A DNA stretch of 64,000 bases from Eledone cirrhosa. Taxonomy: Eukaryota. Position numbers and translations under genes: made by a program. The DNA is taken from NCBI GenBank assembly GCA_964016885.1, contig OZ024740.1:215264001-215328000 (forward strand), in the 5' to 3' direction. How positions within the stretch are numbered: position 1 is the stretch's first letter; the number at the start of each line of letters is the position of its first letter. Of the stretch, positions 30,191 through 64,000 are shown one piece after another. The notes beneath the pieces are model-generated. The model was not told where the DNA came from. It searched no databases and saw nothing but the letters and a program-made list of their open reading frames with translations.

Positions 30191-30319
30191 ATTAATAAAC
30201 ATAATATAATTAATTTATTTAAAATTATAAATATACGTAAATGGTGTCATTCATAATTTTCTCCCCTCATTAAATTACACCAGTTATTTAAGTTAAAAGC
30301 CTCAACTTTTAAAAATCTC

Positions 30320-34399: not shown

Positions 34400-35470
<1,071 letters not shown>

Positions 35471-38289: not shown

Positions 38290-38850
38290 ACAATTGTATA
38301 AATAACATTACAAATTATTCATAATTCTTACAGAATAAAAATAGACAAATAATATAAACAATACTTAACCAATATATAAGCTTAAACAAAACGACCATCA
38401 ATTCACCACCAAGTGTGACAATTGGCCGCACATGATCAGGGTCAACAGAATACTTAATGAATACTTTTTACAGAATGAAAACAAAATAAAGACATAATAA
38501 ATACAACCAATTATTGTTAGGAACATTATAAATATAATACATAAAAATATATAATCAAAGCAAGAGAAAAACAAACATTAATTCACCACTAAGTGCGTAA
38601 ATCGATTACACACTACATCACATGGGTCAGCGGAAATGTTTGAGGCAAACCAACATGTTCAGAGTATTACAGCAGGTGATGGCGATGCTAAGGCGCTGAA
38701 ATAACTAAGCACCCTTACGGGCATCACCTGACACCTCGGTAAGGCAAGCTACTAACGATGACAAGAATTTTGCTGTCAGTGGCCCAACTCCACCAAACGT
38801 GGAAAAATAGAGATTTGATAATTCCCGGTATTTTATCAACGAATTCTCTG
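38290..38850 (-). mobile_element. CRE-like LINE 3' end (endonuclease C-terminus + 3' UTR)
   Basis: TFGGVGPLTAKFLSSL..LTEVSGDARKGA; homologous to 47930-48395, 57770-58270 and 60360-60925. Confidence 0.7.
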
Positions 38851-39339
38851 ACTGACTCATGTGTGCTTTTTGTGCTGGATCTCGGGAAAGACACCTAAGT
38901 AATGGCAATTGGGAGTGATAATCCCGATTTTCAAAAAGGGAGATAAGAGAGATTGTCCCAATTACAGAGGGATCTCCAGACGTAGCACAGCAAGAAATTG
39001 TAGGAGTATTGCCAAGAGGTATAGTCTTGTTTTGTAGACCTCGAAAAGGCATAAGACCGTGACCACCATGGTCAACTTTAATTTCGTCCACGTCAGTGTT
39101 AATTACGTCATCGCCAATTTTAATTTCGTAATTGTCAATTTTAATTTTGCACGGGACCTGCAAGTTAGTATTATTTTTACAAATCCCGCCGAGCTTAACT
39201 TTGCCTTTCATCCTTACGGGGTCGATAAAATAAAGTACCAGTAATGCACTGGGTAATTGCTGGCCTTGTGCCAAAAGTAGAAACAATTATTTTTACTATT
39301 ATTAATCTTTATGTTTAATCATATTCATATTAATAACTA

Positions 39340-40200
39340 CTAGCAGAATGGCCCAGCGTTGCTCGGGATTCTAAACATAGACTGGCATGTTTATCCCTCC
39401 TTTCTGAAACAGTACAGAGAAGTATGGAATACCTCGGCCTTGCGACCGTCGAATAGCAGATTCCACTGACGATTCGTTTGCCCGCCTTGTTCTTTTTCTT
39501 TCCGCTTTCGCAGTATTTCGGCCAATGGAGTATCTCTTCCTTCGAGGCATGACCTAAAAGCAGGACGAAGTAGTCTAAGACTAACTGGTAGAGTAAGGAG
39601 TAAACTCGTCAGTGATGCATGTGATTTCCGAACCGTTGACTATGTAATTGGTGGCCTTGTGCCAAAAGTAGTGGAACTTTTTGGGTGGCATATCGGCTGT
39701 AACAATGACGATAAGCCGCCTGTGCTTTCGTGAAATAAATACGTTTGTTTATATTTTGTTTTTATGTATGCAAAAATATCTGTACACGAATATATAATTA
39801 TATATATATATATATTAAAATAACAGATTAAAGTTTAAGCCAAGAATCGCTGCTTTCCCCCTTAATGGGATCTTCTGAAACTAAAAAAATCAATTTGTGA
39901 ACGCAGAAGCAAATATTTCGAAAAACGTTACAACCGAAGGAAGACGATACTTTGGTTCGTGAAGACGTTTTCATAATGTCGTAATGCAAACAGCCAGATA
40001 TTATAAGAGCGCGACGTTATAGCTATGTATCTATCTAAAAGACAGACTAAGAAAGAGAGAGATCGCTAACCGGCGTCTAATGCGGTCCCTAGGGCATTGA
40101 AAATTTGAAATGTTTTGCTCAAAACGCTCACATGTGTAAAGTTTGAAAAAAATCGGTTGGGTGGTTCTCAGACAGACATTCTCCGTTTTAAATATATAGA
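39340..40200 (-). mobile_element. Non-autonomous Helitron, same termini as 22726-23528
   Basis: Minus strand starts TCtatatatttaaaacggagaatgtctgtctg and ends cccgagcaacgctgggccattctgCTAG. Confidence 0.8.
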
Positions 40201-40899
40201 TTACTACTATTAATATCAATTTCGATATATGGTAGCTGGAAATTATTCAGCTATTCTAAAAAGAATATTAGTCTCCTGATTTGTTCTTCCTGCTTTAACT
40301 AATGAAATTCTCCTTGCATACATTTTGCTCATCTTAAGAGGACGTCCTCATGTGTTACAGTTATGTATTTTTATTTTCTAAATGCAATATTTGGTTGTAA
40401 TGTTTTTTAAAATATTTTCCTCTACGTTTACAGATTGATTTTTCTCAGTTTCAAATGAAACCTTTGCCCCTCACCATCAAATCCGGCCCTGCCTAAACAC
40501 ACATCTATCTTCAACTAAACAAACAATAAAACACAACATAAACCGGTTAAAAAAATTTTTATCACATTTGTTTCGTTCTAATATCTTCTAGCTCCCTACC
40601 TCACCCCGTTTCTTCTCCCTCTTTTCTTGCCTACATAACATTGGCCTCAACTCAGGGCCGGGTTTAATGGGGTGGGGTGGCAAAGGGGCAATTGCCCCAA
40701 GTCCCCTGCAGTGGGGGATGGGGCACTAGCGACGGCCGTAGCAATTTATTTGTGCATAAATTTTACATCCATAATATTTTATCCAGGTGTTTTTCCAAAC
40801 ACGATGAGATTGTATCTCTAAGAAACTTTGACAAATGACAGTGAACAGGTCTTTCTTTATGATGAATTTCTGGATTACTACTGTAAAAGAGAACAAAAA

Positions 40900-41085
40900 G
40901 CAACAACAACCAGCAGGAGACCCAGGGGTAGACTCCAAGCAAGATGGTTGGATAACATCCATGAGCTTGGCTGCTCTCGCTTGGGGATCCAGTCAGATCA
41001 ATTGAAGGAGGCTGCTTCTGACAAGAGCCACTGGAAGGAGTGTTTGAGGACTCTTCCCCCACGACCCTCTCAGGAATAAGTGGTT
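40900..41085 (+). mobile_element. RTE LINE 3' end
   Basis: RRPRGRLQARWLDNIHELG..HWKECLRTLPPRPSQE. Confidence 0.75.
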
Positions 41086-41367
41086 GAAGTGTATTCAGTT
41101 TACAAGGGTAGACTTACTTCACACTAAATAATTCTCCACATCTCATATTGAATAGTTTAATTGTGTAGTTTGATTCGTTTGTCAACTACAAGTCTATATA
41201 AAGTTTTCCCTAATAATGAAAGGTTTTTTTTTCGAATGCGAGCACATTTCTATAAAGAATGAAAATACACAGAAAATATCTCACCATTAAAATACTCTCC
41301 TATCTGTTGGTAGAAATTAAGTTGGCAAGGAAATGATTTTTCATATTTCTCTGTTCACAGGTTTCTC

Positions 41368-42348
41368 TCAAATGTGTATCTGTTTGTGGGTTTTTAAGTG
41401 ACTCTTATATATAAATGATTTATCACATATTTCACAACGATAGGGTCTTTCTCCGGTGTGGCTACGCTTGTGGAGTGTAAGCTGACAATTTTCAATGAAA
41501 GATTTTCCACATATTTCACAATGAAACGGTTTTTCTCCTGTATGGCGTTTTATGTGCTTTGTTAAAAGATAGTTAGTGATAAATGATTTACTACATAATA
41601 TACAGTGGAATGGTTTCTCTCCAGAATGTATAATTTTGTGAACTACAAGGCCAGAATTATCAGAGAATGATTTGCCACATAAATCACACTGATAGGGTTT
41701 TTCTCCGGTGTGAGTTCGTTTGTGGACTGTAAGTTTGGAATTTTCATTGAAAGATTTACCACATATTTGACAGTGGTAGGGTTTTTCTCCAGTGTGTATT
41801 CTTTTGTGTCTTGTTAAGGGGCTGTTAGTGATAAATGATTTCCCACATATATCACATTGGAACGGTTTCTCTCCAGTGTGTGTTCGTTTGTGAACTAACA
41901 GACTTGAATTTTCAGAGAATGATTTGCCACATATTTCACAATTATATGGTTTTTCTCCAGTGTGACTCCGTATATGGATAACAAGATGAGAACTACGATA
42001 GAATGATTTCCCACAAACTTCACAATGAAACTGTTTTTCTCCATTGTGTTTAATTTTGTGTCTTTTTAAATTACTATTACCAGCAAATGATATCTCACAT
42101 ATTTCACAGTGAAACGGTTTCTCTCCAGAGTGTGTTCTTTTATGCCTTATTAAATTACTGTTGTCCATAAAATATCTCCCACATATTTCACAATGATAGA
42201 GTTTTTTCTGACTGTATGTAAACACTTCATGATCTGGCAAGAATGTTTCACAAGGTAAAGGTTTCTCATCACTATATGACCGTGAAACAGAATCTATATT
42301 GTTAAAAACAGTTGTGTTGGAAGTGTCCAAGTGGTTGACGTTCTCCAT
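41368..42348 (-). CDS. C2H2 zinc-finger protein ZNF-A, 326 aa, 10 tandem fingers, single coding exon
   Basis: Uninterrupted ORF from MENVNHLDTSN (start shared with both paralogs); 10 C-x2-C-x12-H-x3-H fingers with TGEKP linkers. The upstream 52 aa of the track ORF are Helitron/UTR sequence. Confidence 0.9.
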   Translation of the reverse strand: MENVNHLDTSNTTVFNNIDSVSRSYSDEKPLPCETFLPDHEVFTYSQKKLYHCEICGRYFMDNSNLIRHKRTHSGEKPFHCEICEISFAGNSNLKRHKIKHNGEKQFHCEVCGKSFYRSSHLVIHIRSHTGEKPYNCEICGKSFSENSSLLVHKRTHTGEKPFQCDICGKSFITNSPLTRHKRIHTGEKPYHCQICGKSFNENSKLTVHKRTHTGEKPYQCDLCGKSFSDNSGLVVHKIIHSGEKPFHCILCSKSFITNYLLTKHIKRHTGEKPFHCEICGKSFIENCQLTLHKRSHTGERPYRCEICDKSFIYKSHLKTHKQIHI

Positions 42349-42364
42349 ATTAATTCTCAGGAAA

Positions 42365-45300
42365 TCTATATATAATATAAAAGAGAGATGCTTCTTGGTT
42401 GGTTTAATCACACGAAAATTACACACACGTACATAGACACACACACACACATCTAAAGAGAGAGAGAGAGAGTGAGACATGCCGTTATACAGGGAGGGGT
42501 ACAATTAAAGTGTTAGATATTTAGATAGAGAGAGAGAGAATGGCAACAAACGATGATTTACACACACACACACACATCGAAAGAGAGAAAAAGACACAGG
42601 GGGAGAGTGAGATATGCCGTTATACAGAGGTACAATTAAAGTGTTGGATATTCAGATAGAGAGAGAATGGCAACGAACTCTGGTTTACACACACACACAG
42701 ACATATATATATATATATATATATATATAGGAAAAGAGTCAGGACCCCGACGGCTGAGCTCCGGCCTGAGCCCAGCTGTCGTGGTCCTGACTCTTTTCCT
42801 ATTACCCACTCTACTACCCTAAGTATCGAGTACTCTGGTGCGTTATGGTCCACCTGGTATCTTACCACTACCTGAGCATTCTTAATTGTTTCGTGGCCAG
42901 CGTCTCCATTGCATCAGTGTGTGTGTGTCAGTGTGTCGTTACACAATAGATCAAAGTATCAGTAGGTTTGTCGTTTTACAGCAGTCATTGAAAGTTAGAT
43001 GATACTAACTACAACACACAGAGTACACAGAGCATACAACGCTCTTCAGTATCCTTTGATTTTTTGGAGAGGTCAGGATAGATACAATTTTGCCTTAAGA
43101 CAAGTAAACCCCAGTACAGGCGAGGAAACTAATAAATCGGTCAGTTGCAAAATTTTTTATTCATTTCACTTCGTGGTAAGAGATTGCTTTAAACATATAC
43201 TAAGAATGGGAAGACTTACAAGCCAATTAATGGTTGATCCCGCCGGGGTTAACTTTGCCTTTCATCCTTACGGGGTCGATAAAATAAAGTACCAGTAATG
43301 TACTGGGTATTTGCTGGCCTTGTGCCAAAAGTAGAAACAATTAATTAAAAACAGAGCCATACATCCATTTGAGAGATGCCATTATAACTGATGGAATGAA
43401 TCCTTCCAGTGTTGGTCAGCCAGTCATTCTGCCATCTAGCTTCACAGGCAGTTCACGCTATATGGCTGAGCGCACATAAGATGCCATGGCATATGTAAGA
43501 AAATTTGGATGTCCAGATCTTTTCATATCATTTACATGCAATCCTATGTGGCCAGAAATTCAAAATGAACTGTTTCAACACCAATATGCAAAAGATAGAC
43601 ATGACATCATCGCCAGAGTTTTTAATGAGAAACAAACGATATTGATGTGGCTGCTAAAAGATGGACAAATCTTTGGCAAACTAAGATGTTGCCTTTACAC
43701 TATTGAATGGCAGAAGAGAGGTCTTCCTCATTCCCATATGCTAATTTGGTGTTCAGACCACATTCACTCAGATCAAATTGATAAAATCATAAGCACTGAA
43801 TTGCTCGATCCTGATGAAGACCCAGAACTATTTGCCATTATCTCAAAACAAATTATACATGGTCCATGTGGCAGTATCAACCCTAAGTGTGTGTGAATGG
43901 GAAATAAATGTGAAAAAAGATATCCAAGGCATTTTCAACAAGAAACCATAACTGGTGATGACGGATATCCTCAATACAGACGGAGAAGCCCTCACTGTGG
44001 TGGAAAAACTGTGATTATCAAGATACGAGGTCAAGACGTTCAGGTTGGTAACAATTGGGTCGTTCCCTACAATCCTCTCCTCTGCAAAATTCTTATGCTC
44101 ACATCAGTTGTGAGTACCACGCATCAGTAAAATCAATCAGGTATGTTTGTAAATATGTCAACAAAGGTATGGCAACTTTTACTATTGGTGGCGATAACGA
44201 ATTGAATGAAGTTAAAACATACCTAACAGGGAGATATATTTCTAGCAATGAAGCCATATGGAGAATCTTCGGTTTTGACATACACAATAGACACCCAGCG
44301 GTAGTGAACCTTGCAGTCCATTTGGAAAATGGTCAGAGGGTATATTACACTGAAGAAAATGCACAATTGATTGCTGCGTTTCCTCCAGACACAACGCTCA
44401 CTGCTTTTTTAAAGCTTTGTGGAGAAGATGCCTTTGCTAAAACCTTACTTTATCATGAGGTTCCCACATTCTACACATGGAATAAAAAGAAATGGAGCCG
44501 ACGAAAGATAGGCAATCATGTGGCTGGCTATCAAGACATCAAAGCAAGTGGTGCAATAGGAAGAGTTTACACGGTACATCCTAGACATAGGGAATGTTTC
44601 CATTACTCCTTGACACTGTTAGAGGGCCAACATCATTTGAAAATATCCAAATTGTACATTCAACTCCCTGTACAATGTATGCTGAAGAATGTAAATTACT
44701 TGGCATACTTGAAGACGAGGAATATTGTAAAAAGACATTGGAAGGGGCAGCTGCCACTCAAATGCCTAAAAAGCTTTGACAACACTTTGCTGTAATGCTC
44801 ACTACGTACAATATTTCAGATCTCTTGAGTCTCTGGGAAAACTATAAGAAAGACTTGTCTCAAGATATTGCACAGGATCAAACTTCAAAACACTGGCATT
44901 AATGTAGATTTTTCTGCACCTATCTATAATGAAGCTCTGACAGAAATTAACAATCACCTGAGGGAAATTGGTTGGTCCCTTAAAGATTACGGTTTACCAG
45001 AACCTGAGGACACAGTTGCATACTTTATTGCACAGGATATATTAAAGGTGATGAATTATGACATCAACAAGCTTGCACAATATGTCAATGAAAATGAAGA
45101 AAAGCTGATTGAAGATCAAAGAATTGCTTATGAAAAACTATTGACCAGTATCAACCAGAATGAAGGAGGCCTTTACTTTTTAGATGCTCCAGGAGGAACT
45201 GGTAAAACCTTCATAATAAATCTCATATTGGCAAAAGTAAGGCAGTGGAAGCAAATTGCTTTGGCTGTTGCATCAAGTGGTATTGCTGCTACCTTACTTG

Positions 45301-46589
45301 ATGGAGGCAAAACAGCACACTCAATGTTCAAGTTGCCATTGAATGTCACAAGAGAAGAGTCTCCTTCGTGCAATATCAAAACGAACACACCAAAAGCAAA
45401 GCTTTTTGAGAAGTTCTCTATGATCATATGGGCCACAATGGCGCATAGAAAGTTATTTGTGGCTCTGGACATTCTTTTAGAGACATTAGAGATATAATGA
45501 AATCATGGGAGAAGTAATGATGGTGCTTGCTGGTGACTTCAGATAAATTCTCCCAGTCGTTCCTAAAGGCACGAGAGCTGATATTGTAAACGCTTGCCTC
45601 CCCGTTGTTCCTAAAGGCACGTGAGCTGATATTGTAAACACTTAAAGTCTCAACTATATGGCAACAAGTCCAGCAATTACCCTTGAGGACCAACATAAGA
45701 GTGCAGTTATACAATGATACAGAAATTGATACTTTTGCAAAACAGCTAATTAAACTGTGTGATGGAAATCTACAAGATGAAAATAGAGAAGTCAACCTTC
45801 CATTTGGAAATGTCTGTAATACAACGAACTAATTGATCAAGTATTTCAAAATGTTGCCTCAAATTATATCAATCAATCATGGCTGTTTGAGCAAGTGATT
45901 TTAGTGTAAAACAATAATATGGTAAATCAGATAAACCAATGCCTACTGGATACGGTCCCAGGGGAGGTTCATACATTTGTCTTCATTGACAAGATTGAAA
46001 AGGATGATGAAGTTGTTAATTATCCTGTAGGGTTCCTTAATAGCCTGGAGCTTCCTGGACTTCCTCCACTCAATTTAACGCTAAAGATTGGAACTCCCAT
46101 CATCCTTTTGAGAAACCTGGACCCACCATGTCTATACAATGGCACACACTTAACAGTGAAGCGGATGATGAAACATCTCCTAGAGGTCACTATTCTTGGA
46201 GGCAATCATCACGGCAAAAATTCATTTATTCCAAAAATTCCACTTATCCCTTCTTCTACCGAGCTGCCATTCAGATTCTCAAGACTTCAGTTCCCTGTTA
46301 GAGCCAGTTTTGCTATGACCATAAAGAAAGCTCAGGGTCAGAGTCTCAAAGTTGTAGGATTGAATCTGAGAGAATAAGTTTTTACCCATGGACAGTTATA
46401 TCTTGATTGTTCACAAGTGGGAACATCTAGAAATCTTCATATACTATGCACGAATCTGGAAGTTTTTTCACTTTTTTTGTCACACACACACCACGGTCTC
46501 GCCTCATACTGTAAACCAGACAATGCATCCAATGCAGTCGTTTTCTCTTACAAACTGTCCACCCGGGCGAAGCCGGGTACCTCATCTAG
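42365..46589 (+). mobile_element. Helitron with both termini and a degraded Rep/Pif1-helicase ORF
   Basis: 5' TC; 3' hairpin cccgg-gcgaag-ccggg then CTAG; A|T target. Rep motifs PDLFISFTCNPMWPEI, EWQKRGLPHSH, YVCKYVNKG; helicase motifs FLDAPGGTGKTF, ASSGIAATLLDGGKTAHS, FAMTIKKAQGQSL; many stops and frameshifts. Confidence 0.95.
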
Positions 46590-47929
46590 TTCTTAAAATA
46601 TGAAAGTCTGTGACTGTAATTTCTTATGGTTCATGCTATTGTCTTCGATGTCACAGGACTGTTTATATACTACAATAAGATTAGATGGAATATATTATAT
46701 CATAGTACAGTTTTTAGTCATTAATATCACAGGACTGTTTATATGATATAATATTAGATGGAGTATATTATATTATGATAGTTTGTTAGTCTTTGATATC
46801 ACAGGACTGTTTATATGATATAATTGTTTCTACTTTTGGCACAAGGCCAGCAATTTACCAGTATATTACTGGTACTTTATTTTATCGACCCCGTAAGGAT
46901 GAAAGGCAAAGTTGACCTCGGCAGGATTCGAACTCACAGAGTATGATCTATTGTTCAGTTTTTTGTCTTACATATCATGGGAGTATGTTTACATATATAG
47001 ACAATATGTATTGTAAATATATTTTCTACTTACAATAGATGGTGTGTGGGGTGCGCCTGTATATGTGTGCTATAACGATAATCCGAATTCTGCAATCCTT
47101 AGATTTGATATCCAGCTGAAAAGGGAAGAAGTTGCTAGGAAAGTTAATTGCTAATTAGTTGGTGATTAAAACTTATTTCCCGCTGTCCTGCAAAATGTGG
47201 AACAACCAATTCACGATGTAACGTAACTTGTGATGAAATATTTAATCCTGAAGGTGATGTATTACTGACTCTATGCTATCCATTAACGTTCACCTTAACA
47301 TGAGAAAATGACTACACATGACATAACTAGATTAATTAAAACTATCAAGATATTAACTTGACGGTGTTGTTGACAATTATCTCCTCCAGTAAATACTACC
47401 GGTGACTTAAGTTAAAAGTCTCTAATATAAAAATCAATCTTTCCTCATAGTCCTACTGTACCGCTCTGACCAGAGACTAAACAACATTTATAAGAAATAT
47501 CCTTGCCACCGAAATAAATAAATAAAAACATACATAAAAATCAAAAATTCATTATATATAATTTTGAAACCTAAACCATAAAACCTCCATATCCTTTCTC
47601 CAAAGAAAAACAAAACAAAAACAAACAAAACTTAAATCAACTCAGAACTATTGTAATTTATTATAAAAAGTCTAATTATTGTCTATATTAGACTTCAGAT
47701 TTAGGACACAGCATGGCCCATTACTGAATAGGGATGTAAGTTATGAAAGACTTATTCCTCAATGTAGGAAAAAACATTTTCACAAAGAAGCTATGAGTAA
47801 TACTTAGCTTCAGATATACACTTAACTCCACAAACCTTTTAGGAAATATATACCAAGACTCACATCCTTTACTCTCCTTGGATTCAGGGTTTTACTGTAT
47901 ATTAGATAAGTTTTTATTAAATAATATAT

Positions 47930-48395
47930 ATATATACATAAATAACATTACAAATTGCTCACAATTGTTTAGAAATAACATTACAAATATGATGTTGATA
48001 AAAACAAATATAAGCACATATAACAAACACAATTAACTATTGCTAAGAACCTCACAAAAACAACACCAAAATATATTACCAGAGTGAGAAAAAGAAGAAA
48101 AAAGAAAAAAGAGGGAAGCAAAAACAAAAACAAAAAGGACCAATTCACCACCAAGTGTGACAATCAGTTGTACATCACATCACGAGGGTCAATGGAATAT
48201 TTTGATGATGGGGAGGCTAAGGCACTGAAACAATCAGGCACCCTCACAGACATCACCTGACACTTCAGTAAGGTGAGGTGATGGGGAGGCTAAGGCACTG
48301 AAACAATCAGGCACCCTCACAGACATCACCTGACACCTCAGTAAGGTGAGGTGATGGGGAGGCTAAGGCAATGAAATAACCAGGCACCCTCACAT
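47930..48395 (-). mobile_element. CRE-like LINE 3' end containing a 73-bp tandem repeat (~2.5 units)
   Basis: gatggggaggctaaggc recurs at 48207, 48280 and 48353. Confidence 0.7.
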
Positions 48396-48769
48396 ATATT
48401 TTTATTGATTTTTCCAACAACAGATTTCTGTTGAGGAATTATCCAGTCACAGGCCTGGAATCCTAACTGTTGAGGATTTATCCAAACACAGGCCTGGATT
48501 CCTAAATGTTGAGGAGTTATTCAATCAAAGGCCTAGTTTCCTAACTGTTTAACAATTCATGAATCACTCATTTCCATAGCTATCAAAATCAACAAGGATA
48601 TTAATTCAAGTTCATTCTGAATCAATAGAACATAATTTTTCCTTCAGTAGTCAAGAAGTTTAATTTAACTTCCAAGCTGTCAAGTTTACTTGCAATAGTC
48701 AGTCTTATCTGACAAAATGTTTTTGAGCACAGATTACTAACTGAATCTATCAAGCAAAAAATTCCTTTG

Positions 48770-49320
48770 TTTGCTAAATGATGGCAAGCGCCCCGATGGA
48801 ATTACCTTCTTCTCAGTCGAAGGAAATAAATCCCTCAAATCGGATGTAACATGCTGTGACACATTCTCCACCTCTAACTTTGTCACTTCAGCCACAAATT
48901 CCATTACCGCAGCTTGCAATGCAGAAAACAGGAAGATAAGCAAATACCACAGCTTGTCTGGCCACTTCCTCTTTGCACAGGTCGCTGTTGAGACCTCAGG
49001 AATCCTTTGACCCCATACAGTTAACCTTCTCTGCAAAATTGGAATGACAGCAGCCCATCTGAGGAAGGAATCCCACGAGGTGGGGTGACTGTTGCAGTGT
49101 GTCGCTAACCATTTTCTGTGGAAATACCTTTATCATTTTGTCTTATGGGTGCAGCTGAAACACCACACTGACCTAGGTGTAGAGTCTGTCTCTCTCTTCC
49201 CTTCCCCCTTTCTTTCTATAATAGTCCTTTCTCTTTCCCTCCTTCTCCTCTCATTTATGACATTTATAGTCCTTCCCAATATTGCTTTCTTTTTCTGTAC
49301 ATTTTATTGAACAACATTCC
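48770..49320 (+). mobile_element. CRE-like LINE endonuclease region and 3' UTR
   Basis: DGKRPDGITFF..DVTCCDTFSTSN..FLFAQVAVETSG; homologous to 31440-32000. Confidence 0.75.
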
Positions 49321-50659: not shown

Positions 50660-51192
50660 TCATCATCATCATTATTGTTTAACGTCCATCTTCCATGATA
50701 GCATTGAGAGAGATCCAGGAGAATCAGACAGAACTGATTTGGGCTTGGTTTCTATGGCTGGATGCCCTTCCTAGTGCAAACCACATTTACAGTGAGTACT
50801 GGGTGCTTTTTGTGATGACGCCTACACAACCACTTTACAACATGGACTGGGTGCTTTTTGTCAAGACACCTACACAACCACTTTACAGTGTGTACTGGGT
50901 GCTTTTTGTCAAGACACCTACACAATCACTTTACAGCATGGACTGGGTGCTTTTTGTCAAGACACCTACACAACCACTTTACAGTGTGTACTGGGTGCTT
51001 TTTGTCAAGACACCTACACAACCACTTTACAGTGTGTACTGGGTGCTTTTTGTCAAGACACCTACACAACCACTTTACAGCATGGACTGGGTGCTTTTTG
51101 TCAAGACACCTACACAACCACTTTACAGTGTGTACTGGGTGCTTTTTGTCATGACACCTACACAACCACTGTGCAGTGTGGACTGGGTGCTT
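50660..51192 (-). repeat. SINE-type tail plus 48-bp minisatellite (~8 units)
   Basis: Unit actgggtgctttttgtcaagacacctacacaaccactttacagtgtgt, the reverse complement of the 412-770 type. A degenerate plus-strand array lies at 49520-49750. Confidence 0.85.
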
Positions 51193-51652
51193 TGTGATAT
51201 TCGTTCTGCCTTGCTATGATCTAAGTTTAAAATTGTGCTGAGGTCAACTTTGCCTTTCATCCTTTCAAGGTTGATAAAAAAACCACCAGTCCAGTACTGG
51301 GGTCTCACTTCCCTTCTCTTTCTCTGGAAGAAATTAGCTGTGTTCAGACCTGGAGAGGGGATGGACTCCATTCAGTTTAAAGTACCCAAGACACATTGTA
51401 TGTTACTATGGCAGCCCTACATCTCCATCAGGAGTTACTGGTGTATAGATATGTATCTACACACAAACACATACATATGTATAGGTAAGACACCCATGCA
51501 TGTATGTGTGTAACTATGCAAAAGGGATGTAGTAGCAACACAAAGAATCCAATACATTTAAAATACAAGAAAAAAGCCTAATTTCACTTCTCTATTTGTA
51601 TCAGAGACTGGAATATTCTGAAATATATGCCAATAGTAACTTAGCCCTTTAA

Positions 51653-52092
51653 CCTTTTAGCATTTAAGCCAGCCGTATCCGGTCAGAATTCTCTCACCTC
51701 TTTCTGTTCGAACTAGCTGTAACTGACCACTCACACTAATGTTAAGGTATTGTTCTGAAAATAATTAATATCAAAATTCCAGATTCGATATTATGTGAAA
51801 TAATTGTGTAAGATAAAGCCTTTACCGCAAAAATACAATAGTAAATATAGAGTAATGTAAATGCTAAAGGGTTAACATTTAAACTGGCTGTATCTGGCCA
51901 GAATTTTCTCACCTCTTTCTGTTCAAACTGGCCATAACTGCCCACTCATACTGATGTTCAGGTATTGTTCTCAAAATAAATAATATCAAAATCTAATAGA
52001 TTTGATATTATGTGAGATAATTATGTGAGGTAAAGCCTTTACTGTAAAAATATAATAGTATATATAAAGTAATGTAAATGCTAAAGGGTTAA
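51653..52092. mobile_element. piggyBac-type MITE, head-to-tail dimer
   Basis: ttaaccttttagcattt..aaatgctaaagggttaa, followed by a second near-complete copy ending aaatgctaaagggttaa. Confidence 0.7.
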
Positions 52093-53205: not shown

Positions 53206-53398
53206 TGAGGGTCAGCTGAAAAGTTCATAGGCTGACTACAAGTGACGCTACAGCTGTGAAATATTGCATACATTAATTTCGACTCTTCTTATTAATAACT
53301 GCATTATTTCTTTCCTGGGACTATGTTAAAAATAAACCTCATTTGGTTATCCCATGAGAGTACCTTGGTCAGCTTATGAACTTTTCAGCTTACCCTCG
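53206..53398. mobile_element. Mariner-like MITE
   Basis: TIR gagggtcagctgaaaagttcataggctgac / gtcagcttatgaacttttcagcttaccctcg followed by TA. Partial copy at ~15845-15955. Confidence 0.7.
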
Positions 53399-53552
53399 TA
53401 TTTTAATAAAAGAGCTTCTATCCAACAAAAGCATATTTGTATACTACAAGATATACATTAAAAAAATATATTTTTCTGACATTACACTATAATATTCTCC
53501 AACATTTACTTGGTGGTGGACAATAAGTTTGCAAGAATAAGATTTTTCATGT

Positions 53553-54490
53553 TTATGTTTCACAGTTAACAGTCTCTCCTCCAATGTGTATCAGTTGGTG
53601 TGTTTTTAGTTGACCATTAGTGATAAATGATTTATCACATATTTCACAATGATAAGGTTTTGCTCCAGTGTGTCTACGTTTATGGACCGTTAGCTTAGAA
53701 TTTTCAATGAAAGATTTTCCACATATTTCACAATGAAATGGTTTTTCTCCAGTGTGTATTCTGTTGTGTCTTGTTAAGAGACTGTTACTGATAAATGATT
53801 TACCACATATTTCACATTGGAATGGTTTTTCTCCAGTGTGTATGTTTTTGTGAACTAACAAACTTGAATTATCAGAGAATGATTTGGCACATATTCCACA
53901 ATGATAGGGTTTTTCTCCAGTGTGAGTACGTTTGTGGAGTGTAAGTTTAGAATTCTCAATGAAAGATTTACCACATATTTGACATTGATACGGTTTTATT
54001 CCAGTATGTATCTGTGTATGTTTTGTTAAGAGACTGTTACAAACAAAAGATTTACCACATATTTCACAGTGGAAAGGTCTCTCTCTCCAGTATGTATTCT
54101 TTTGTGAACTACAAGCCTAGAATTACCAGAAAATGATGTCCCACATATTTCACAATGATAAGGTTTTTCTCCAGTGTGACTACGTATGTGGATAACAAGA
54201 TGAGAACTCTGGTTGAATGATTTATTACAGACTTCACACTGAAACTGTTTTTCTCCAGTGTGTATTCGTTTATGCCTTGTTAAATTACTGCTATTGGCAA
54301 ATGATTTCCCACATATTTCACAATGGTAGACTTTTTCTTGACCGTGTATTTCTTTGTGTGTGAAAATTTCATGTTCTGAAGAGAATGTTTCACTAGGTAA
54401 AGGTTTCTTATCACTATATGTCAGTGAAACAAAGTCTATATTGTTAAAAACAGTTGTATTAGAAATGTCCAAGTGTTTAACATTCTCCAT
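53553..54490 (-). pseudogene. C2H2 zinc-finger gene ZNF-B, 9 fingers, one +2 frameshift at ~54078-54087 (recent pseudogene or assembly error)
   Basis: MENVKHLDISN start. The linker after finger 3 reads ggagagagagacct (GA run 2 nt too long); removing 2 nt gives a continuous 311-aa ORF. Confidence 0.8.
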
Positions 54491-54836
54491 ATTAATTCTC
54501 AGGAAATTATTAAAACATGAATGTCTGTAAATGTGTCTGTGTATATACATGTATATACATGCATCAGACCCGACAACCCCTAAACCCAAACGGGGTGTAC
54601 CATGAAAAAAAGTGCCCCAAACGGGGAGAAATGAGGTAAAATGGAAAGATTTTACAAATTGAAAGCTATACCCATTTTCACAAGAGAAGACATCTTTCAC
54701 CAGCTCCAAAGTGGATGGGAATCTCCCTGTCTGACGTATTTGTGTGTGTGTGACCACAATTACAGGCAGTTCGCCATTTTAAGCACTCGATGCTGTTACG
54801 AAGGTCCGTCTCGAGTTGCACTGTATTACAGATGAG

Positions 54837-56682
54837 GGCACTACAACGCTATTAGCTGTCAGTCCAAGCAGCCGATGGAAACAGGCGAAGGTGACGTCAC
54901 TCGTCAAACATCGTTTCTTTCCGTTCTTTCCGTATTACTACCGTATTACTACCACGCGTAAGTGGAGTTTTAACGCATTTTTTGAAGAGAGAGAGAGAGG
55001 GGGGGGGACTTAAAAGGGTCAAATTAGAAAACAAATAGAGGAGAGAGAGGGAAGACTTAAAAGGGCCAAATTAGAAAACAAATAGAAAAAAACAAATAGA
55101 AAACAAGTCATGGTTATAAAGCATATCGATGTAAGTGGAGTTGCTTAAATGAAAATATAGGTGGCCCTTAAAAGGGCCAAATTAGAAAACAAATTTAAGT
55201 TAATTAGAAAACAAGTCATGGTTATCAATGTAGAAAACAAGTCATTCATAAATTTAAGTTTTATAATCAAATTTTTTTTCATAGGTGGCCAAAAAGTTAA
55301 TTAGAAAACAAGTCATGGTTATCAAATAAATTTGATTTATTCATTTATATTTTCATTATTCACCAACCTTATTCAAAAGCTTGTTTAGAAACATTTTTTT
55401 CACCAACCTTATTCAAATGCATGGAATCAGATGACGGATATGTTCTAATAACTTTTGGAAAATTTCTCCTTTAAATTCATACCGCCACATGAATTCAATG
55501 AGGTGGGTTTGAAGCAAAATTCTGGCTGTCCCGTTTTCCCTTTTATTCCTATTTTTTACGTGTTTCCACAAGCATTCTATGTGATTCGTTGTGGCAAATG
55601 TTATTGGATCAACAAAATTGATCGAATGGTTCACCGTCAAATGTCGATAACCTAGCTGATCGATCTTATTATAGGAACGCCATAGATCAGATATTATGAT
55701 TGTCTCTGGCAATATACGATTCTGTATAATGGTTAAAAGTGTCTCCGCTGCTACTAAAATACATCTCTACTGCTACTAAAATACATCTTCTGGTACCTCT
55801 TTCCAAGGCACCCAAAACCCATTGTGTTGTCACAGAATGGCCACGATTGTATTTCCTTCTCACGAAGGCGCTTTTATCAATCTCGACAAGCTTAATGTTT
55901 TGTGCCACATAGTACTCTGCACAAACATCACGGCAAAAATTTCGCCAATCTGCTACGGCCACATTAGCGATACGACATTCCTCTGAAATCTTCTTGGCTA
56001 AATCTTCTTTTGCCCCAAAATATAATATATCAACTATCTGTTCACACTTCAAATTGCTATTTTCTAAAAATGTGCCTTTTCTAATAGAAACCTGTTTTCT
56101 ACAAGGTCTTTTACATGACCAGATAATCCCATCTGACACATTTTGTTTCGCTATTTCAAACATATGTTGACCACATGAAGGGCAGACCTTTTGTGTATTC
56201 AGAAGTCCGTGAATTTTCAACCAATTGACGGTATCTGCTGTAGTAGCGGTAGCGATGGTTAATTCCCTTAACACTTGGATATATTATAGAATTCATTTTT
56301 CAACTTGCAGATGCGTGTATTATCACAAAGTGAAGATTAAAGTTTATTTATTTACACGTGGTGTTGGTGATGATTGTTGCTGATTGGTGGGGATTGTCTC
56401 CATGGGGACTGTCGCTTGTCTCCATGGGTATTGTATCCATGCTTTTGAATAGGTTGGTGGAAATAATTTGTTTTCTAAACATTTCTTCATAAATATATAG
56501 GGTTGGTGACAAAAATTTGATAACCATAATTTGGCCCTTTTAAGGGCCACCTATATTTTCATTTAAGTTAACTCCACTGTTGGTGAAAATGACTTGTTTT
56601 TTATATTGATAACCATAACTATGAAAATATGTGACGTCATTCGTCAACGTAACCCTACTTTCACTTCTGACAGCTAATACCA
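54837..56682 (-). mobile_element. Merlin-superfamily DNA transposon (IS1595/ISXO2-like DDE transposase, frameshifted; coding ~55413-56296)
   Basis: N-terminal CPSC..WSC zinc ribbon, VEIDKSAF.RRKYNRG..WVLGALER, IISDLWRSY..H.TVNHS.NFVDP.T..TTNHIECLW. Inverted terminal match tattagctgtcag / ctgacagctaata plus inverted subterminal repeats (ggtggcccttaaaagggccaaatt). Confidence 0.88.
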
Positions 56683-57769
56683 TGAACTGTATTTACAGAT
56701 GGTGTGTGGGGTGCAGCTATATGTGTAACAATAATCCGAATTCTGCAATTTTTAGATTTGATATCTAACTGAAAAGTCAAGAAGTTGTCAGGAAATTTAA
56801 TTGTTAATTAGTTGTTAATTAAAATATATTTCACTGTCCTGTGGGAAACAACCAATTCACGATGTAACGTAATTTATGAAATGAAATATTTACACATGGA
56901 GGTAATGTAACTCTGATCCTGAAACATGCAGTTCAGCTTATGATATGTATAAACATTAACGTTAATTTTAACGTGAGATAATTACTACACACGATAAAAT
57001 TAGATTCATTAAAACTATCAAAATAATAAATACACGGTGTCATAAAAAATGTTTTCCTTCTCTAAATCATACCGGTGACTTAACTTAAATGTCCTTAATA
57101 TAAAAAATATACGTTATATTTATCCACAATTGTATAAATAACATTACAAAATAGACATAAATCATCATCATCAATATCACCGTTTTACGTCCATTCTTCC
57201 CCGCTAGCATGTGTTAGATGGGTTATCCTGTTGTGGGCAATGCCAGGTCAAGTGACCATGTCTTGCTCATACGGAACTGGTTTGGGCTTGATTTCTACTG
57301 CTGGATGCCCTTCGTAACACCAACCTCATTTACAGTGAATACTGGGTGTTTTTTACCGCGGCGCCTACACGACCACTTTACAGTGTGGGCTGGGTGCTTT
57401 TTTGTCTTGACACCTCCACGACCACTTTGCAATGGGAGGGGCTGGGGGCATATTGTCTATATGCTTCAACTTCGGCTTGTTCCCGTGGGAAGTTGGGTCT
57501 TCTGTATTACTGCGTAACGCCAGATGTCTCAGTCATGTGTCATCATCTTTGAGAGGTGCAATTGGGCAAGGGCCACTTTTATCACCTCATCCCAGGTCTT
57601 CTTGGGTCTCCCCACTCCAAGGCTTCCATCGACTTTTAGTGCTTTGCCCTTTTTATGCAGCGGTCCTCCTTCATACGCATCACATGTCCATACCAACGCA
57701 ACCTGCTCTCCTGTATTTAGCATTTGATTCTTCTTATGCGTAGTCTCTCTCTCAAATAATATATATGAT

Positions 57770-58270
57770 ACTTAACAAATATATAAGATTAAATAGAAGA
57801 AAGAACAGAAAAAGAGGGAAGCAAAAATAAAAACGGTTATCAATTCACCACTAAGTGCAATAATAGGCGACATATTATATCATAAGGGTTAACGGAATAT
57901 TTTGAGGCAAGCCAATACACTTGCAACATTACCACGGGTGATGGCGAGACTAGGGCGCTGAAATAACCAAGCACCCTCAAGAGCATCACCTGACAACTCA
58001 GTAAGGCCGGGTGATGGCGAGGCTAAGGTGCTGAAACAACCAAGCACCCTGAAAGCACCACCTGACACCTCAGTAAAGTGAACCGCCAACGATGACAAGA
58101 ACATCACTGTAAGCGGCACAACTCAACAAACGTCTCGATGGCCCCAGGCTGAAAAAAATAATTATTAGATAAATCCAGGTATTTCCGAATTTTATTCCGT
58201 CCAACAACAGAAGCAGTGCCCCCCCCCCACACACACACAGCAGCATCCATGATATGGGAGGGAGCAAAAG
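57770..58270 (-). mobile_element. CRE-like LINE 3' end with 73-bp duplication
   Basis: AWLFQRPSLAITRGNVASVL; inverted homologue of 60420-60925. Confidence 0.75.
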
Positions 58271-58399
58271 AGTCACTGACTGTGGTGTTAGGGTGCTAAT
58301 TTGTATCACCCTACCTCTCCCCTCTCCCCTACATTATCGGATTCAGTCGATATTTGCTCTATTCACCCCCTATTCACCCCACCACTCCCATAACAGCTA

Positions 58400-60925
58400 G
58401 CTTGCCTCCAACATCATTTTCCTCCAACCGAGTCCCACTGTCAGAGTCAATGCTGATCACCCGGTTGCCCCCTCTACCCCTATGATTAATCTACCCTCAC
58501 CGTCTTCTCATCTGAATCCTAATTCTAAGGTCGACTCCTCTGATGTATCCAATTTTCCACCAAATTGCATTCTCTGATCCCGTCCAAGTCGATACCTAAA
58601 GACAATCGCATGTTGCTCCTGCCGTAAACTACTACAGGAGCTGCGTTGGCATTACTAAGGTTCAAGCTGAAAGTTTCTCAAACTGGACGTGAAACCAATG
58701 CTACTTCAGCTCCGATTCACTTTGCAGTTCAGAACCTAACTCTGACGTTCAGATTTCCGTTGAGGATTTTGCCGCTAAGCTCCGGGGCTTGTCTAAGTTG
58801 AAACTCATCAACAGAATCCCAAAGGGAACTCAGACCAGTTTCGCCCATACTCTCTCCAAGCTGCTGAAGAATGTCTGTCTATCCAACAACATTTAGGATT
58901 GGCAGTAACTATTCTTGTTCCCCTTAGTCTCTCTCCACATGTCCTACGTGAAATCTGGATCCCTCACATCTTCCCTAAAGCGGCAGTTCGAGTTGTTTGA
59001 TTCAACTGCTACTCATCTCAGGTTGGTGATCAACTCGGTTCCAATCAAATGGACGATCACAGAACTTAAAGAAGGCCGTCAACGCCAATTCAATGAATTT
59101 GACATTAAAAGGGCTGTTCGCCTCCTCTCTTCTCTGTCATCTCTCACCCAATGCACTATATATTCACTCAACCAACTGAGAGTGAGACATTCTCCAGCTC
59201 CTCCGGATGACCACTTACACTAGTCTGATCCACCATGCCATTTACAATCTGTATTTACCACATTCATCCTCTGGAGCAGAGATTGATGGTCTTCGACCTC
59301 AGCATCCCAAGGATGGTGTCTCCTGGTCGGCCGGCGATACCGGTCTAGAGCTCTTGGAGAACATCGCCCATTTCGTCAACCTGTTCTCATCCGAGAATGT
59401 CCTCCTTTATATTCTTCCCCTGTTATTTAGGGCTAAACTGTTTGGCCTTACAAAGCCCAACGGTGATCTCCACCCCAAAGCAGTTGGGTGTACACTACGA
59501 CGGCTCATTGATAATTTTCTCCCCTCATTAAATTACATCGGTGATTTAAGTTAAAAGCCTCAACTTTTAAAAGATCTCGAAGTCATTGAGCCTCACCAAG
59601 GATTTTTTTTTCGTACTTAGGAATTATTTGTCAATCCCTAAGTTATTGTATTTTCTCAGAGTTAGTCCCTCTTACAAATTCTCGTCGTCTCTCCAACGCT
59701 TTGACGACCTAATATTCAGTAAACTTGAGGGTCTGGTCAATGTCCGACTCCCCCTCCAGAGTCTCTCGACCAAGCTGCCTTGCCCAAACGGTTCGGAGGT
59801 CTCGGTCTGTGTAATTGCACATCTTTATCTCTACCTTACTTTCTTTCCTCCATCCACACTTGCTCCCCTTTAGTGGGTGACATCCTCTCCTTTCCTACAT
59901 GGACTAGTTCCTCCAGGAAGATGGATGAAGCTTTATTGCAGTGGAGAGAGCTGGGTTTGTCAGTCCCAGTTACTGATGAGGATGGATGGAAGCAGAAAGT
60001 ATGGGACAATCTGCATTCGAGGGAAATTTTTAACTCTCTTTAATCATTCTGATCAATTTTCTAGGTGCCGCTTACTTTCTGCAAGCAGAAAGTTCTCGGG
60101 GGACTGGATTGAACCCCTGCTTGTGGCCAACATTGGTGGTCTTTTCAGTCAGGACGAGCTCCTCTTCTCCATTGCACTCAGAGTAGAAGCTAATGTCTGT
60201 TGGGTGGTGATGGTGGTGGTGGTGGTGTGTGTGTGTGTGTGTGGGGGGGGGGGGGGGGTTCTGAGATGTCGACTCCACAGGCCCCCATGGTTTGGCCTGC
60301 CGCCTGAATGTTACCCACCACACCGAGCTAGACCTGTTCATTAAATTATGGATTATCCAAAAGTGATGGGAAGAGACCAGGCGGCCTTATCCTTACTCCC
60401 TGGGTAAGAGGCAGGTGTCTCATCTTGGACGTCAAAGTCAGTGACTCTTTTGCTCCCTTCCACATCATGGACGCCACGGTGAATGGAGGGGGGGGGGGGG
60501 GGTCACTACTTCCGTTGCCGAACGGAATAAAATGCGGAATACCTACATTTATCTAATAATAATTGTTTCTACTTTAGGCACAAGGCCAGCAATTACCCAG
60601 TGCATTACTGGTACTTTATTTTATCGACCCCGTAAGGATGAAAGGCAAAGTCAACCTCGGCGGGATTTGAACTCAGATCGTAAAGGGACGTAACTATGCT
60701 GGAAAGCATGGCGTCCGACCCTCTACCGATAATAATAATCTTTTTCTAACCTGTGGCGTTCGAAACGTTTGGTAGAGTTGGGTCGCTGACAGCGAAGTTC
60801 TTGTCGTTGGCGGCTCGCCTTACTGTGGTGTCAGTTGATGCCCCTGAGAGTGCCTGGTTGTTTCAGTCCCTTAGCCTCGCCATTACCCGTGGTAATGTTG
60901 CGAACATGTTGGCTTGCCTCAAAAA
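58400..60925 (+). mobile_element. Degraded, internally deleted/chimeric CRE-like LINE
   Basis: GIDGLRPQH-like, LFGLTKPNGDLHPKAVGCTLRRL, LPKRFGGLGL, RPGGLILTPWVRGRCLILDV; central RT motifs not seen; family A SINE nested at 60558-60730. Confidence 0.75.
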
Positions 60926-61169
60926 CTAAGCCTGATGGTCAAAGCAGTATCACCCTTCCATACGATGCTGGCCTGACACTAAACAACATTTTATCTAATA
61001 TTTCATTAGAAAGAACCACCACACAAACACAGATACAAATTATATATTTATGCATATAATCCGTAATTTTGTGACTTAATCTATAAACATCTTATTCTTT
61101 CTCCTCTAAAACAATTTCTGGTTATTCTTTTGTTGCAATTCTATTTTATGAATTAGGATCTTCAATTCG

Positions 61170-61645
61170 GTATTTGTACCGTGTCAGCTTTTACCTATGG
61201 TCATGAATGGTAAAAAATCTTAGGCAATGACGGAAAGAATACAATCACGAATACAAGCAGTCGAAATGGGGTTCCTTCGAAGGGTCTTTGGAGTAACGTT
61301 ACTTGATAAAGTGCGTAGCTCGGAGATCAGGGAGTCACTCCAGGTAGAGCCACTAGTTCTCTAAATTGAGAGATCGTAGCTCTGATACTATGGGTATGTG
61401 GTTATAATGTCTCAGGAAAGAATCACTGGACAGATTTTACGAACAAAACCAACAAGTAGAAGACCCAGGTGCAGACCCCGAGCAAGATGGTTGGATAACA
61501 TACATGAGCTTGGCTGGTCTCTCTTGGAGATCCAGCCGGATCAGTTGGAGACGGTTGCTTCTGACAGGACCCACTGGAAGGAGATTTTGAGGACTTTGCC
61601 CCCTACAACCTTCTCAAGAAGAAGAAGAAGAAGAAGAAGAAGAAG
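61170..61645 (+). mobile_element. RTE-clade LINE 3' fragment with (GAA)n tail
   Basis: TYGHEW..RIQAVEMGFLRRVFGVTLLDKVRSSEIRE..MSQERITGQIL..RRPRCRPRARWLDNI. Confidence 0.8.
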
Positions 61646-62059
61646 CTGTGTGTGATGTTGGTGATAATTACAAAAAATACAGAGAAGAACCAGAATACTA
61701 TTGTAGAATAAAGGACGAACGCCGTCTGTAACAGGCTTATAACATTAAGTCCATAATATATGAGGTCGAAATTAGACTCGAGAACCCCTGATATGCAATG
61801 GACAGAACAAAAGCTATCCCGGTATGATGCAAAACAATTTTAACTAATGTTTTACTAACATGTCGCATCCTTCAGACACTCTGAAATAAAAATATCCATA
61901 GCCCTTCCGAAACAAATCTAGGAATGCAAAGACAGATAAAGAATTCTAGAAAAATAAAAAATCCTCATTGAAACGTAATAGTTGTAGGTTGATCCTTTCT
62001 TAATTTAACATGGGTTGAACATTATAGAAAATATTTCTTAATGTATTAAATTATCAGGG

Positions 62060-62940
62060 ACTTTTAACGTAAGTCACCGGTGTTATTTAACGAAGAACAA
62101 AATTGTCAACGACACCGCCTACTTATTATCTTTCTAACTGTAATTAATCTAATTATATCATGTGTAGTAATTATTTTATGTTAAGTTGAAAGTTAATGTT
62201 TGTGGATAACATAGAGTGTTTCAGGATGGGTATATACCAACTTCCTTGGTAAATATTTCATTTCATAACAAATTACGTTACATCGCAGAACAGGAGGAAA
62301 TAGGTTTTAATCACTTCGTGTTCAAGTGCCGCCTTTCAAATCCGAAGTACTTGTGTGATCGATATCCCATTGTGCAATTGTATATTGTCATTTGTAAACA
62401 TTTTTTGATTTATTACTACAAACGAGCACACATATATACATGCATAAATTATTCGGGTACTTATATATATATTCCCCCCACATCCGTCATACACTGTCAT
62501 ATATTTACTTCTATTACAGCTGTGTTGGATGTTTCATTACAATTTATAGTACTCTACCAGAACTTCAGATATCTGCCATTTATGGATATTCTTTATTGTT
62601 TTAACCAACATAATATCCGTTAATCATATTCACAATCATTAATGTAAAAATAGAAGTTTTTTTCTCCACAATATGTGTGCCACTTGGAGAGGACCAAGTC
62701 AGCAACAAACAATCTATTGTAAGTAGAAAATATATCTACAATACATATTGTCTATATATGTAAACATACTCCCATGATATGTAAGACAAAAAACTGAATC
62801 ATCTAATCTTATATCATGTAAACAGTCTTGTGATATCAAAGACTAAAAAACGGTACCATAATATAATATACTTCATCTAATCTTATTATATGATATAAAC
62901 AGTCCTGTGATATCAAAGACAACAGCATGAACCATAAGAC
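62060..62940 (+). promoter_or_regulatory. Upstream non-coding block shared by the ZNF paralogs (putative promoter / 5'UTR exon and intron 62719-62938)
   Basis: Reverse-complement homology to 46610-47440 and 56695-57110; shared gtcaccgg and aattacgttacatcg motifs; donor GTAAGT at 62719 and acceptor AG at 62937-62938. Confidence 0.55.
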
Positions 62941-62972
62941 ATTCGTGTTTTAAGAATTTCCTGAGAATTAAT

Positions 62973-64000
62973 ATGGAGAATGTTAAGCACTTAGGCATTT
63001 CTAATACAACTGTTTTAAACAATATAGACTCTGTTTCACGGTCATATAGTGATAAGAAACCTTTACCTAGTGAAACATTCTCGCCAGAACATGAAGTCTT
63101 TACACACAAAGAAATACACAAAAAAGAAAAACCTTACCATTGTGAAATATGTGGGGAATCGTTTGTCTCCAATGGGAATTTAACAAAACACAAAAAACTA
63201 CACACTGGAGAAAAAGAATTTCATTGTGAGATATGCAAGAAATCATTCACCCAGAATTCAAATCTTATTATCCACATACGTAGTCACACTGGAGAAAAAC
63301 CTTATAATTGTGAAATATGTGGTAAATCTTTCTCTGTTAATTCCAGTCTTGTAATTCACAAAAGAATACATACTGGAGAGAAACCTTTCCACTGTGAAAT
63401 ATGTAGGAAACCTTTTATTTCTAACAGTCTCTTAACAAAACACACACAAACACACACTGGAGAAAAACCCTATCATTGTGAAATATGTGGTAAATTTTTC
63501 ATTAATAATTCTCATCTTGTAGTTCATAAAAGAATACACTCTGGAGAAAAACCTTATCATTGTGAAATATGTGGGAAATCCTTTGTTGACAATTCTAAGC
63601 TTAAAATTCATAAACGTAGTCACACTGGAGAAAAACCCTATCACTGTCAAATATGTGGTAAATCTTTCATTGAAAATTCTAAACTTACAGTTCACAAACG
63701 TACTCACACCGGAGAAAAACCCTATCAGTGTGGAATATGTGGCAAATTATTCTCTGATAATTCTAGTTTGGTAGCTCATAAAAGTATACACACTGGAGAA
63801 AAACCATTCCAATGTGAAATATGTGAGAAATCATTTTTCACTAACTATCTTTTAAAAAAACATAAGAGAGTACACACTGGAGAGAAACCATATCACTGTG
63901 AAATATGTGGGAAATCTTTCTCGGATCATTCTAATCTTGTAGTTCACAAAAGAATGCATACTGGAGAAAAACCTTATCATTGTGAAATTTGTGGGGAATC
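62973..64000 (+). CDS. C2H2 zinc-finger protein ZNF-C, at least 10 fingers, runs off the window end
   Basis: MENVKHLGISNTTVLNNIDSVSRSYSDKKPLPSETF then 84-bp periodic fingers with TGEKP linkers. No stop seen, which is presumably why it is missing from the ORF track. Confidence 0.9.
   Translation, partial: MENVKHLGISNTTVLNNIDSVSRSYSDKKPLPSETFSPEHEVFTHKEIHKKEKPYHCEICGESFVSNGNLTKHKKLHTGEKEFHCEICKKSFTQNSNLIIHIRSHTGEKPYNCEICGKSFSVNSSLVIHKRIHTGEKPFHCEICRKPFISNSLLTKHTQTHTGEKPYHCEICGKFFINNSHLVVHKRIHSGEKPYHCEICGKSFVDNSKLKIHKRSHTGEKPYHCQICGKSFIENSKLTVHKRTHTGEKPYQCGICGKLFSDNSSLVAHKSIHTGEKPFQCEICEKSFFTNYLLKKHKRVHTGEKPYHCEICGKSFSDHSNLVVHKRMHTGEKPYHCEICGE

Follow-up and report, generated by a model that had tools for sequence, protein, structure and literature searches.

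Passages of two reports on coleoid cephalopods describe expansions of C2H2 zinc-finger (ZNF) genes that form clusters (PMC9068888, PMC12513265), and part of the second indicates that tandem ZNF duplicates may share regulatory elements (PMC12513265). In mouse, transposons in the clusters of KRAB zinc-finger protein (KZFP) genes gain copies by segmental duplication and were proposed, in the sections concerned, to promote non-allelic recombination (PMC12575710). Among long interspersed nuclear elements (LINEs), clades of the restriction-like endonuclease (RLE or REL) type are mostly target-specific according to parts of PMC4640811, and CRE types are present in cephalopods according to a passage of PMC10294476. 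Octopus ZNFs were among those analyzed for predicted binding to transposable elements (TEs) in a study of TE-ZNF coevolution across metazoans, whose relevant passages deal with predicted binding and with how copy numbers correlate; LINEs as duplication cassettes are not their subject (PMC10547256). Here we analyzed a ZNF cluster in a 64-kb stretch of the 3.0-Gb genome of Eledone cirrhosa (G000:C1:215264001-215328000, hereafter the window). A first-pass annotation had proposed that every ZNF copy in the window is preceded by the 3' end of a CRE-like LINE in the same orientation, as a repeated cassette. We found that what is repeated is an upstream block of ~400 bp together with one ZNF coding exon, in clusters on several chromosomes, and that the four LINE remnants in the window (R1 to R4; Table 1) are not one repeated cassette: their junctions, 3' untranslated region (UTR) variants and distances to the block all differ.

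The locus fits a coleoid tandem C2H2 ZNF cluster, with multi-finger genes and many clustered paralogues; tandem multi-finger genes with lineage-specific duplicates are also what passages of PMC9068888 and PMC12513265 describe. The main-text passages of these papers mention no shared upstream block and no LINE remnants in spacers, and the word "promoter" has 0 occurrences in the part of PMC12513265 concerned. A literature search, with supplements outside it, found no description of a ZNF upstream block or of CRE remnants in octopus ZNF clusters. The cluster is small (29.8-64.1 kb of the window), and a search of its flanks found no ZNF array or block in the 100 kb on either side. Pfam zf-C2H2 matched 9-10 stretches in ZNF-A and ZNF-C, and the Pfam search found no KRAB domain in the window ZNFs. 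The N termini of ZNF-A, ZNF-B and ZNF-C were 77-83% identical to one another, compared with at most 67% to others (149 matches among the 150 scored of 393 candidates), so the three are mutual closest relatives. The array ZNF-psi was absent from these 149 matches and belongs to another subfamily. The synonymous divergence (dS), which finger shuffling can inflate, was 0.69 between ZNF-A and ZNF-C (325 codons), 0.54 between ZNF-A and ZNF-B (133 codons) and 0.32 between ZNF-B and ZNF-C (137 codons). In 720 kb of clusters elsewhere in the genome, we counted 107 ZNF arrays.

The upstream block accompanies ZNF arrays throughout the family. A search with the block of ZNF-A (block A) gave 40 matches among the 40 scored of 241 candidates, and a ZNF array was present on the expected side and strand at all 28 outside block loci that were fetched. 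In other cluster regions (600 kb on C27, C8 and C26, which were picked by block matches and of which L081, L087 and L090 were known beforehand to hold CRE pieces), a same-strand ZNF array lay within 1.5 kb of 67 of the 72 blocks. The distance from block to array was 54-1,500 bp, on the same strand, in clusters across several chromosomes. For 66 full blocks compared between chromosomes, the identity was 82% within the block itself, 67% over the following 235 bp and 48% farther upstream, and 43 of the 66 had a start codon 120-280 bp beyond the block. Blocks A, B and C in the window differ by 20-23%, compared with 26-50% at the synonymous sites of the three genes. The conservation suggests that the block is under purifying selection and is a candidate promoter or 5'-exon element, likely regulatory. 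The first-pass annotation had placed a shared non-coding block between remnant and gene for ZNF-A, ZNF-B and ZNF-C, which our analysis confirmed; ZNF-psi has no block. We also considered the block as LINE sequence, which was ruled out by the dispersed CRE copies, as these lack it. The proximal upstream segments of ZNF-A and ZNF-C (46618-47047 and 62705-62943) were 88-97% identical despite the dS of 0.69 between the genes, for which either conversion or strong constraint could account.

We then analyzed the LINE family. The LINE has a reverse transcriptase (RT), then a CCHC knuckle and then an RLE-like motif, the latter two being visible in the frames of L274 and L264 and in the window translations. 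Pfam RVT_1 matched L264:6270-6920 with an E value of 9.5e-5, but the score of 22.6 bits was below the cut-off of 29.6, and of 24 longer sequences homologous to the C-terminal frame, 19 contain PF00078. No Pfam family matched the knuckle/endonuclease motif, the window LINE fragments had no Pfam match, and a PDB search with the RT gave no match. What the knuckle and the RLE motif stand for is our assumption, and the label "CRE-like" rests on these presumed motifs together with PMC10294476. The same order of RT, CCHC knuckle and RLE-like motif, as well as 5'-truncated copies, is described for CRE-clade retrotransposons in passages of PMC4640811. Unlike that mostly target-specific clade, the family here is dispersed, with 3,071 candidates genome-wide, and no common 3' flank was found among the best 29 dispersed copies on many chromosomes (9 short matches in 406 pairs). 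None of the 29 copies had the block nearby and only one, L043, had a ZNF array nearby, upstream of which it lay in the same orientation; a site-specific insertion at ZNF genes is therefore not supported at the level of sequence. At L266 (G000:C3:71.83 Mb), a CRE copy lies ~770 bp upstream of a co-oriented ZNF array that lacks the block, and near dispersed copies such as L032, L048, L052, L257, L259 and L260, additional CRE copies often lie only a few kilobases away, in either orientation.

All four CRE-like REL/3'-UTR remnants reported by the first-pass annotation are present in the window, and each has the same strand as the ZNF array that follows it. However, "every ZNF copy" was too broad, since a fifth ZNF fragment has an antisense CRE body upstream, and instead of a single repeated junction, R1, R2, R3 and R4 end at four different places. 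The end of R1 is ~3.1 kb from the fingers of ZNF-psi, and that of R2 is ~480 bp from block A. The REL/3'-UTR part of R3 lies at 57836-58288 (-), and its true 3' end adjoins block B (~15 bp), in a stretch that a contig covers without differences (56665-57150). Contigs also confirmed the junctions at 59154-59633 and 60874-61268; these contigs, from three runs, represent one sample of one study, which is possibly the assembly source. R4 contains a young, high-copy SINE-like (short interspersed nuclear element-like) insert at 60554-60739 (4,263 candidates), which makes up 186 of its 566 bp, and R4 as first delimited, when used as a query, returned mostly this insert.

We next compared the remnants for signs of common descent. 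On conserved columns, R1 to R4 differ by 7-15% from the panel majority and by 15-22% from one another, and each pair shares 0-3 derived bases. On a tree of 41 rows, the five window rows need five changes, none pairs with another, and they were grouped in 0% of 200 bootstrap trees. Beyond the element itself, we found no homology between the flanks of the remnants. Because the gene dS is 0.32-0.69 and the remnant divergence 15-22%, ZNF-A, ZNF-B and ZNF-C look older than the CRE insertions. The 73-bp tandem that R2 and R3 share could point to a common origin of the two, but this was ruled out since the tandem recurs at many loci. Its unit stems from the endonuclease region of the CRE-like LINE and recurs genome-wide as a minisatellite (1,291 candidates). 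Its arrays include some of over 1 kb, with the best matches mostly on small chromosomes, and its loci include 48206-48394 of the window and G000 C25:9.223-9.225 Mb, C20:12.685 Mb, C24, C17 and C6 (L172-L200).

Two other clusters show what a co-duplicated LINE looks like. On C26, five units carry an antisense CRE copy that is 96-99.6% identical over 1.6 kb, flanks included. On C27, six tandem units of block and ZNF share an antisense fragment of ~150 bp from a second CRE subfamily (96-99%). Identical breakpoints and homologous flanks are thus found in the antisense units of C26 and C27, and not in R1 to R4; the view that the LINE remnant was part of the duplicated unit is not supported for the window and holds, in antisense, for these two clusters. 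The C26 units (G000:C26:7.88-7.91 Mb, L289-L291) are young and have three older related copies near, and the six-unit site on C27 is at G000:C27:2.408-2.439 Mb (L226-L229).

A different kind of event links two CRE copies within the window. Positions 30248-30764 and 59506-60029 (~520 bp) differ by 4.5%, and just beyond by 18%, as for unrelated copies. When this pair was used as a positive control for common descent, it shared 31 of 41 and 38 derived bases. The tract at 59.5 kb occupies the expected position of the RT core, and the contig at 59154-59633 spans its junction. R4 as a plain duplicate of the 30-kb copy was ruled out, since the identity is limited to the tract. The exchange would be an ectopic conversion or a non-allelic recombination, with one end probably resolved within CRE homology and the other by short microhomology. 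Of the LINE-seeded recombination proposed in the first-pass annotation, this tract is what stands; neither a direction nor any gene gain is assignable to the event.

The density of CRE 3' ends was compared with a background of 4 per 628 kb, to which 40 stretches of 10 kb at even spacing contributed 2 ends and 228 kb next to the cluster another 2. The other clusters had 7 ends in 600 kb, compared with 2 in 400 kb of background, a difference that was not significant (p=0.33-0.38). Upstream of the blocks elsewhere, a CRE end was co-oriented in 6/72 cases and antisense in 1/72, and no co-oriented end was found in 66/72. The addition of C26:7.83-7.95 Mb changed the counts upstream of arrays to 6/107 co-oriented and 8/107 antisense. 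A rule of co-orientation, which C27, C8 and C26a had suggested (5 co-oriented, 1 both, 1 antisense), failed in the added region, where 8/8 CRE 3' ends were antisense, mostly co-duplicated. Away from ZNF genes, CRE copies were also clumped, with 8 extra copies in 214 kb (9 shorter loci pooled) compared with 4 in 628 kb (p=0.003). The local LINE excess is only partly explained by this genome-wide clumping. CRE ends may be slightly over-represented upstream of ZNF genes, as a regional preference; a fixed target is not supported. Of the two observations that the first-pass annotation had named as counting against its cassette, differing junctions and a lack of enrichment near ZNF genes, only the differing junctions were clearly seen.

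We consider it probable that the unit of block and ZNF was duplicated and inverted locally and that the CRE tails entered the spacers later as separate insertions, CRE copies now and then being duplicated as passengers or exchanging sequence. ZNF-A, ZNF-B and ZNF-C would all derive from one founder unit that was duplicated in tandem and inverted at this locus. The spacers, where insertions may be tolerated, would then have filled with LINEs, SINEs, a Helitron and a DNA transposon. The four-fold co-orientation would be largely chance, together with antisense copies left out of the count, and resident CRE copies can be carried along in later duplications, as seen on C26 and C27, and can exchange sequence, as in the mosaic at 59506-60029. 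Several results weigh against this explanation. The approximately unbiased (AU) test left the one-clade topology of the remnants unrejected (p=0.119; 249 columns). The reference panel consists of the best matches to R4, which biases the ranks against it (R2 best matched L056, R3 best matched L047 and L049, and the other window remnants ranked 23-33 of 33). The block distances are similar to the remnant distances, and with finger shuffling inflating dS, the dating of genes against remnants is not airtight. It could be proposed that one CRE tail in the founder unit was copied with ZNF-A, ZNF-B and ZNF-C soon after its insertion and that later indels scrambled the junctions. Besides the unrejected monophyly, the co-orientation of all four remnants, their membership in the younger subfamily and the 73-bp tandem in both R2 and R3 are consistent with such an early co-duplication. 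We regard it as quite improbable, since the remnants have UTRs of different variants, each with matches among dispersed copies, the flanks have no homology, gene dS exceeds the remnant distances, ZNF-psi belongs to another subfamily, and the 73-bp tandem is recurrent.

The density figures also count against separate insertions at random. In 36 kb, the window has 4 co-oriented 3' ends, compared with 0.23 expected from the background (P about 1e-4), which comprises only 4 events, mostly from large chromosomes, and with 0.42 expected at the rate of the other clusters (P about 9e-4), both comparisons being post hoc. The 6 co-oriented upstream copies elsewhere compare with 1.14 expected (P=0.001 at face value). 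In a cleaner subset for clumping, 4 extra copies in 190 kb (20 flanks of ~9.5 kb) gave p=0.09, and given the clumping, three extra copies in 36 kb still had a P of 0.04-0.15. Furthermore, the 3' end of R3 and the 5' end of the 30-kb copy both lie ~15 bp or less from the same block edge. Alternatively, the CRE-like LINE may favor the spacers in front of ZNF units because these are open or AT-rich, at no fixed sequence, and then feed the recombination that remodels the cluster. The young remnants in the window, the excess of co-oriented copies, L043, the two insertions at the block edge, the exchange tract and the co-duplicated copies on C26 and C27 would all fit such a preference. We nevertheless hold it to be unlikely, given the non-significant difference between clusters and background, the equally common antisense copies, the few background events and the absence of an assignable gene gain from the exchange tract. 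Least credible, and hardly to be expected on these data, is a LINE 3' transduction as the source of the ZNF copies, or a LINE that targets a fixed sequence at ZNF genes. The geometry of R3, whose end abuts block B, would suit either process, and RLE-type clades are mostly target-specific in the passages of PMC4640811. However, the 66 of 72 block-bearing units elsewhere that have no co-oriented LINE end upstream speak against the transduction suggested by the first-pass annotation, the distances in the window range from ~15 bp to 3 kb, and the 29 dispersed copies share neither a 3' flank nor a nearby block.

Table 1. Positions of ZNF genes, upstream blocks and mobile elements in the window
Feature	Position	Strand	Remark
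Fifth ZNF fragment, truncated C2H2	29864..30214	-	tblastn array and translation; overlooked in the first-pass annotation
5' piece of block	30186..30317	-	fused by deletion to fifth ZNF fragment; matches blocks A and C at 71-73%
CRE-like LINE body (RT C-terminus to zinc knuckle)	30306..30997	+	antisense to fifth ZNF fragment; abuts block edge
Second-subfamily REL remnant	31368..31929	+	antisense to neighboring ZNFs; RPDG/WD motifs; 70% to 48780-49281
ZNF-psi	34468..35116	-	broken finger array, different subfamily, without block
R1	38260..38846	-	REL tail, two 3' UTRs in tandem
ZNF-A	41368..42348	-	open frame, 326 aa
Helitron Rep/PIF1 remnants	43480..46377	+	between block A and ZNF-A start; Pfam Helitron_like_N, PIF1, Pif1_2B_dom
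Proximal upstream segment of ZNF-A	46618..47047	-	common to ZNF-C (88-97%) and other family members (79-85%)
Block A	47100..47433	-	family-wide upstream element
R2	47905..48394	-	tail with 73-bp internal tandem (2.6 copies), full L056-type UTR
Second-subfamily REL remnant	48762..49281	+	antisense to ZNF-A, just past R2
ZNF-B	53559..54490	-	frameshifted past about codon 139
DNA transposon with inverted ends	55134..56578	-	between block B and ZNF-B; open reading frame 55687-56283
Block B	56753..57101	-	
R3	57100..58288	-	tail with one 73-bp duplication, L049-type UTR; UTR interrupted by later repeats ~57160-57755
5' part of CRE-like RT	59186..59507	+	same copy as R4; 85% to L034 over 102 bp
Tract shared with 30248-30764	59506..60029	+	inverted block edge and CRE body
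R4	60349..60927	+	REL tail without UTR; ends 1.1 kb from block C
Block C, partial	62053..62314	+	
ZNF-C	62973..64000	+	open frame of 365 aa, continues beyond window end

The remaining features are other mobile elements and repeats. The CRE body at 30 kb gave a profile match at 30289-30995 with 740 bits. The Helitron, at about 42400-46590 just upstream of the ZNF-A start, separates the intact ZNF-A frame from block A. The transposon at 55134-56578 is presumably Merlin/ISXO2-like, as judged by a motif, and contigs show an internally deleted form of it (55201 to 56533). A hairpin in its terminal repeat (56528-56573) was over the cut-off for the Rfam Histone3 stem-loop (37 compared with 34 bits), the single match in the Rfam search, and this match may be due to chance. 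A 48-bp satellite of ~97 copies is found at 17124-21737, and also at 413-747 and 50779-51193; a dispersed repeat has a tail related to this satellite.

The signatures described in passages on the mouse KRAB-ZFP clusters and their endogenous retroviruses (ERVs) (PMC12575710) are also present here, on C26, on C27 and at the 30-kb and 59-kb copies. In contrast to the mouse clusters, the element is an RLE-type LINE instead of an ERV, R1 to R4 were not co-duplicated, and no KRAB domain was found by Pfam. The locus is likely mostly a case of ordinary cluster aging, and it resembles the mouse KZFP/ERV clusters to a modest degree. A stronger and less likely version, which we put forward only tentatively, is that the loop of the mouse KRAB-ZFP clusters also runs in octopus C2H2 clusters, where an RLE LINE would take the part of the ERVs: its CRE-like copies would land preferentially just upstream of a conserved, putatively regulatory block, be amplified as passengers and reshape the cluster by recombination.

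The origin of the thousands of ZNF genes of coleoids is an open question, and at this locus the LINE is dispensable for the duplicated unit. The block marks members of the family on different chromosomes and could be a promoter that they have in common. The clusters also provide clear cases of LINE remnants that were co-duplicated or exchanged sequence inside ZNF clusters. Should a genome-wide test find real enrichment, the mouse KZFP/ERV model would have a parallel among invertebrates.

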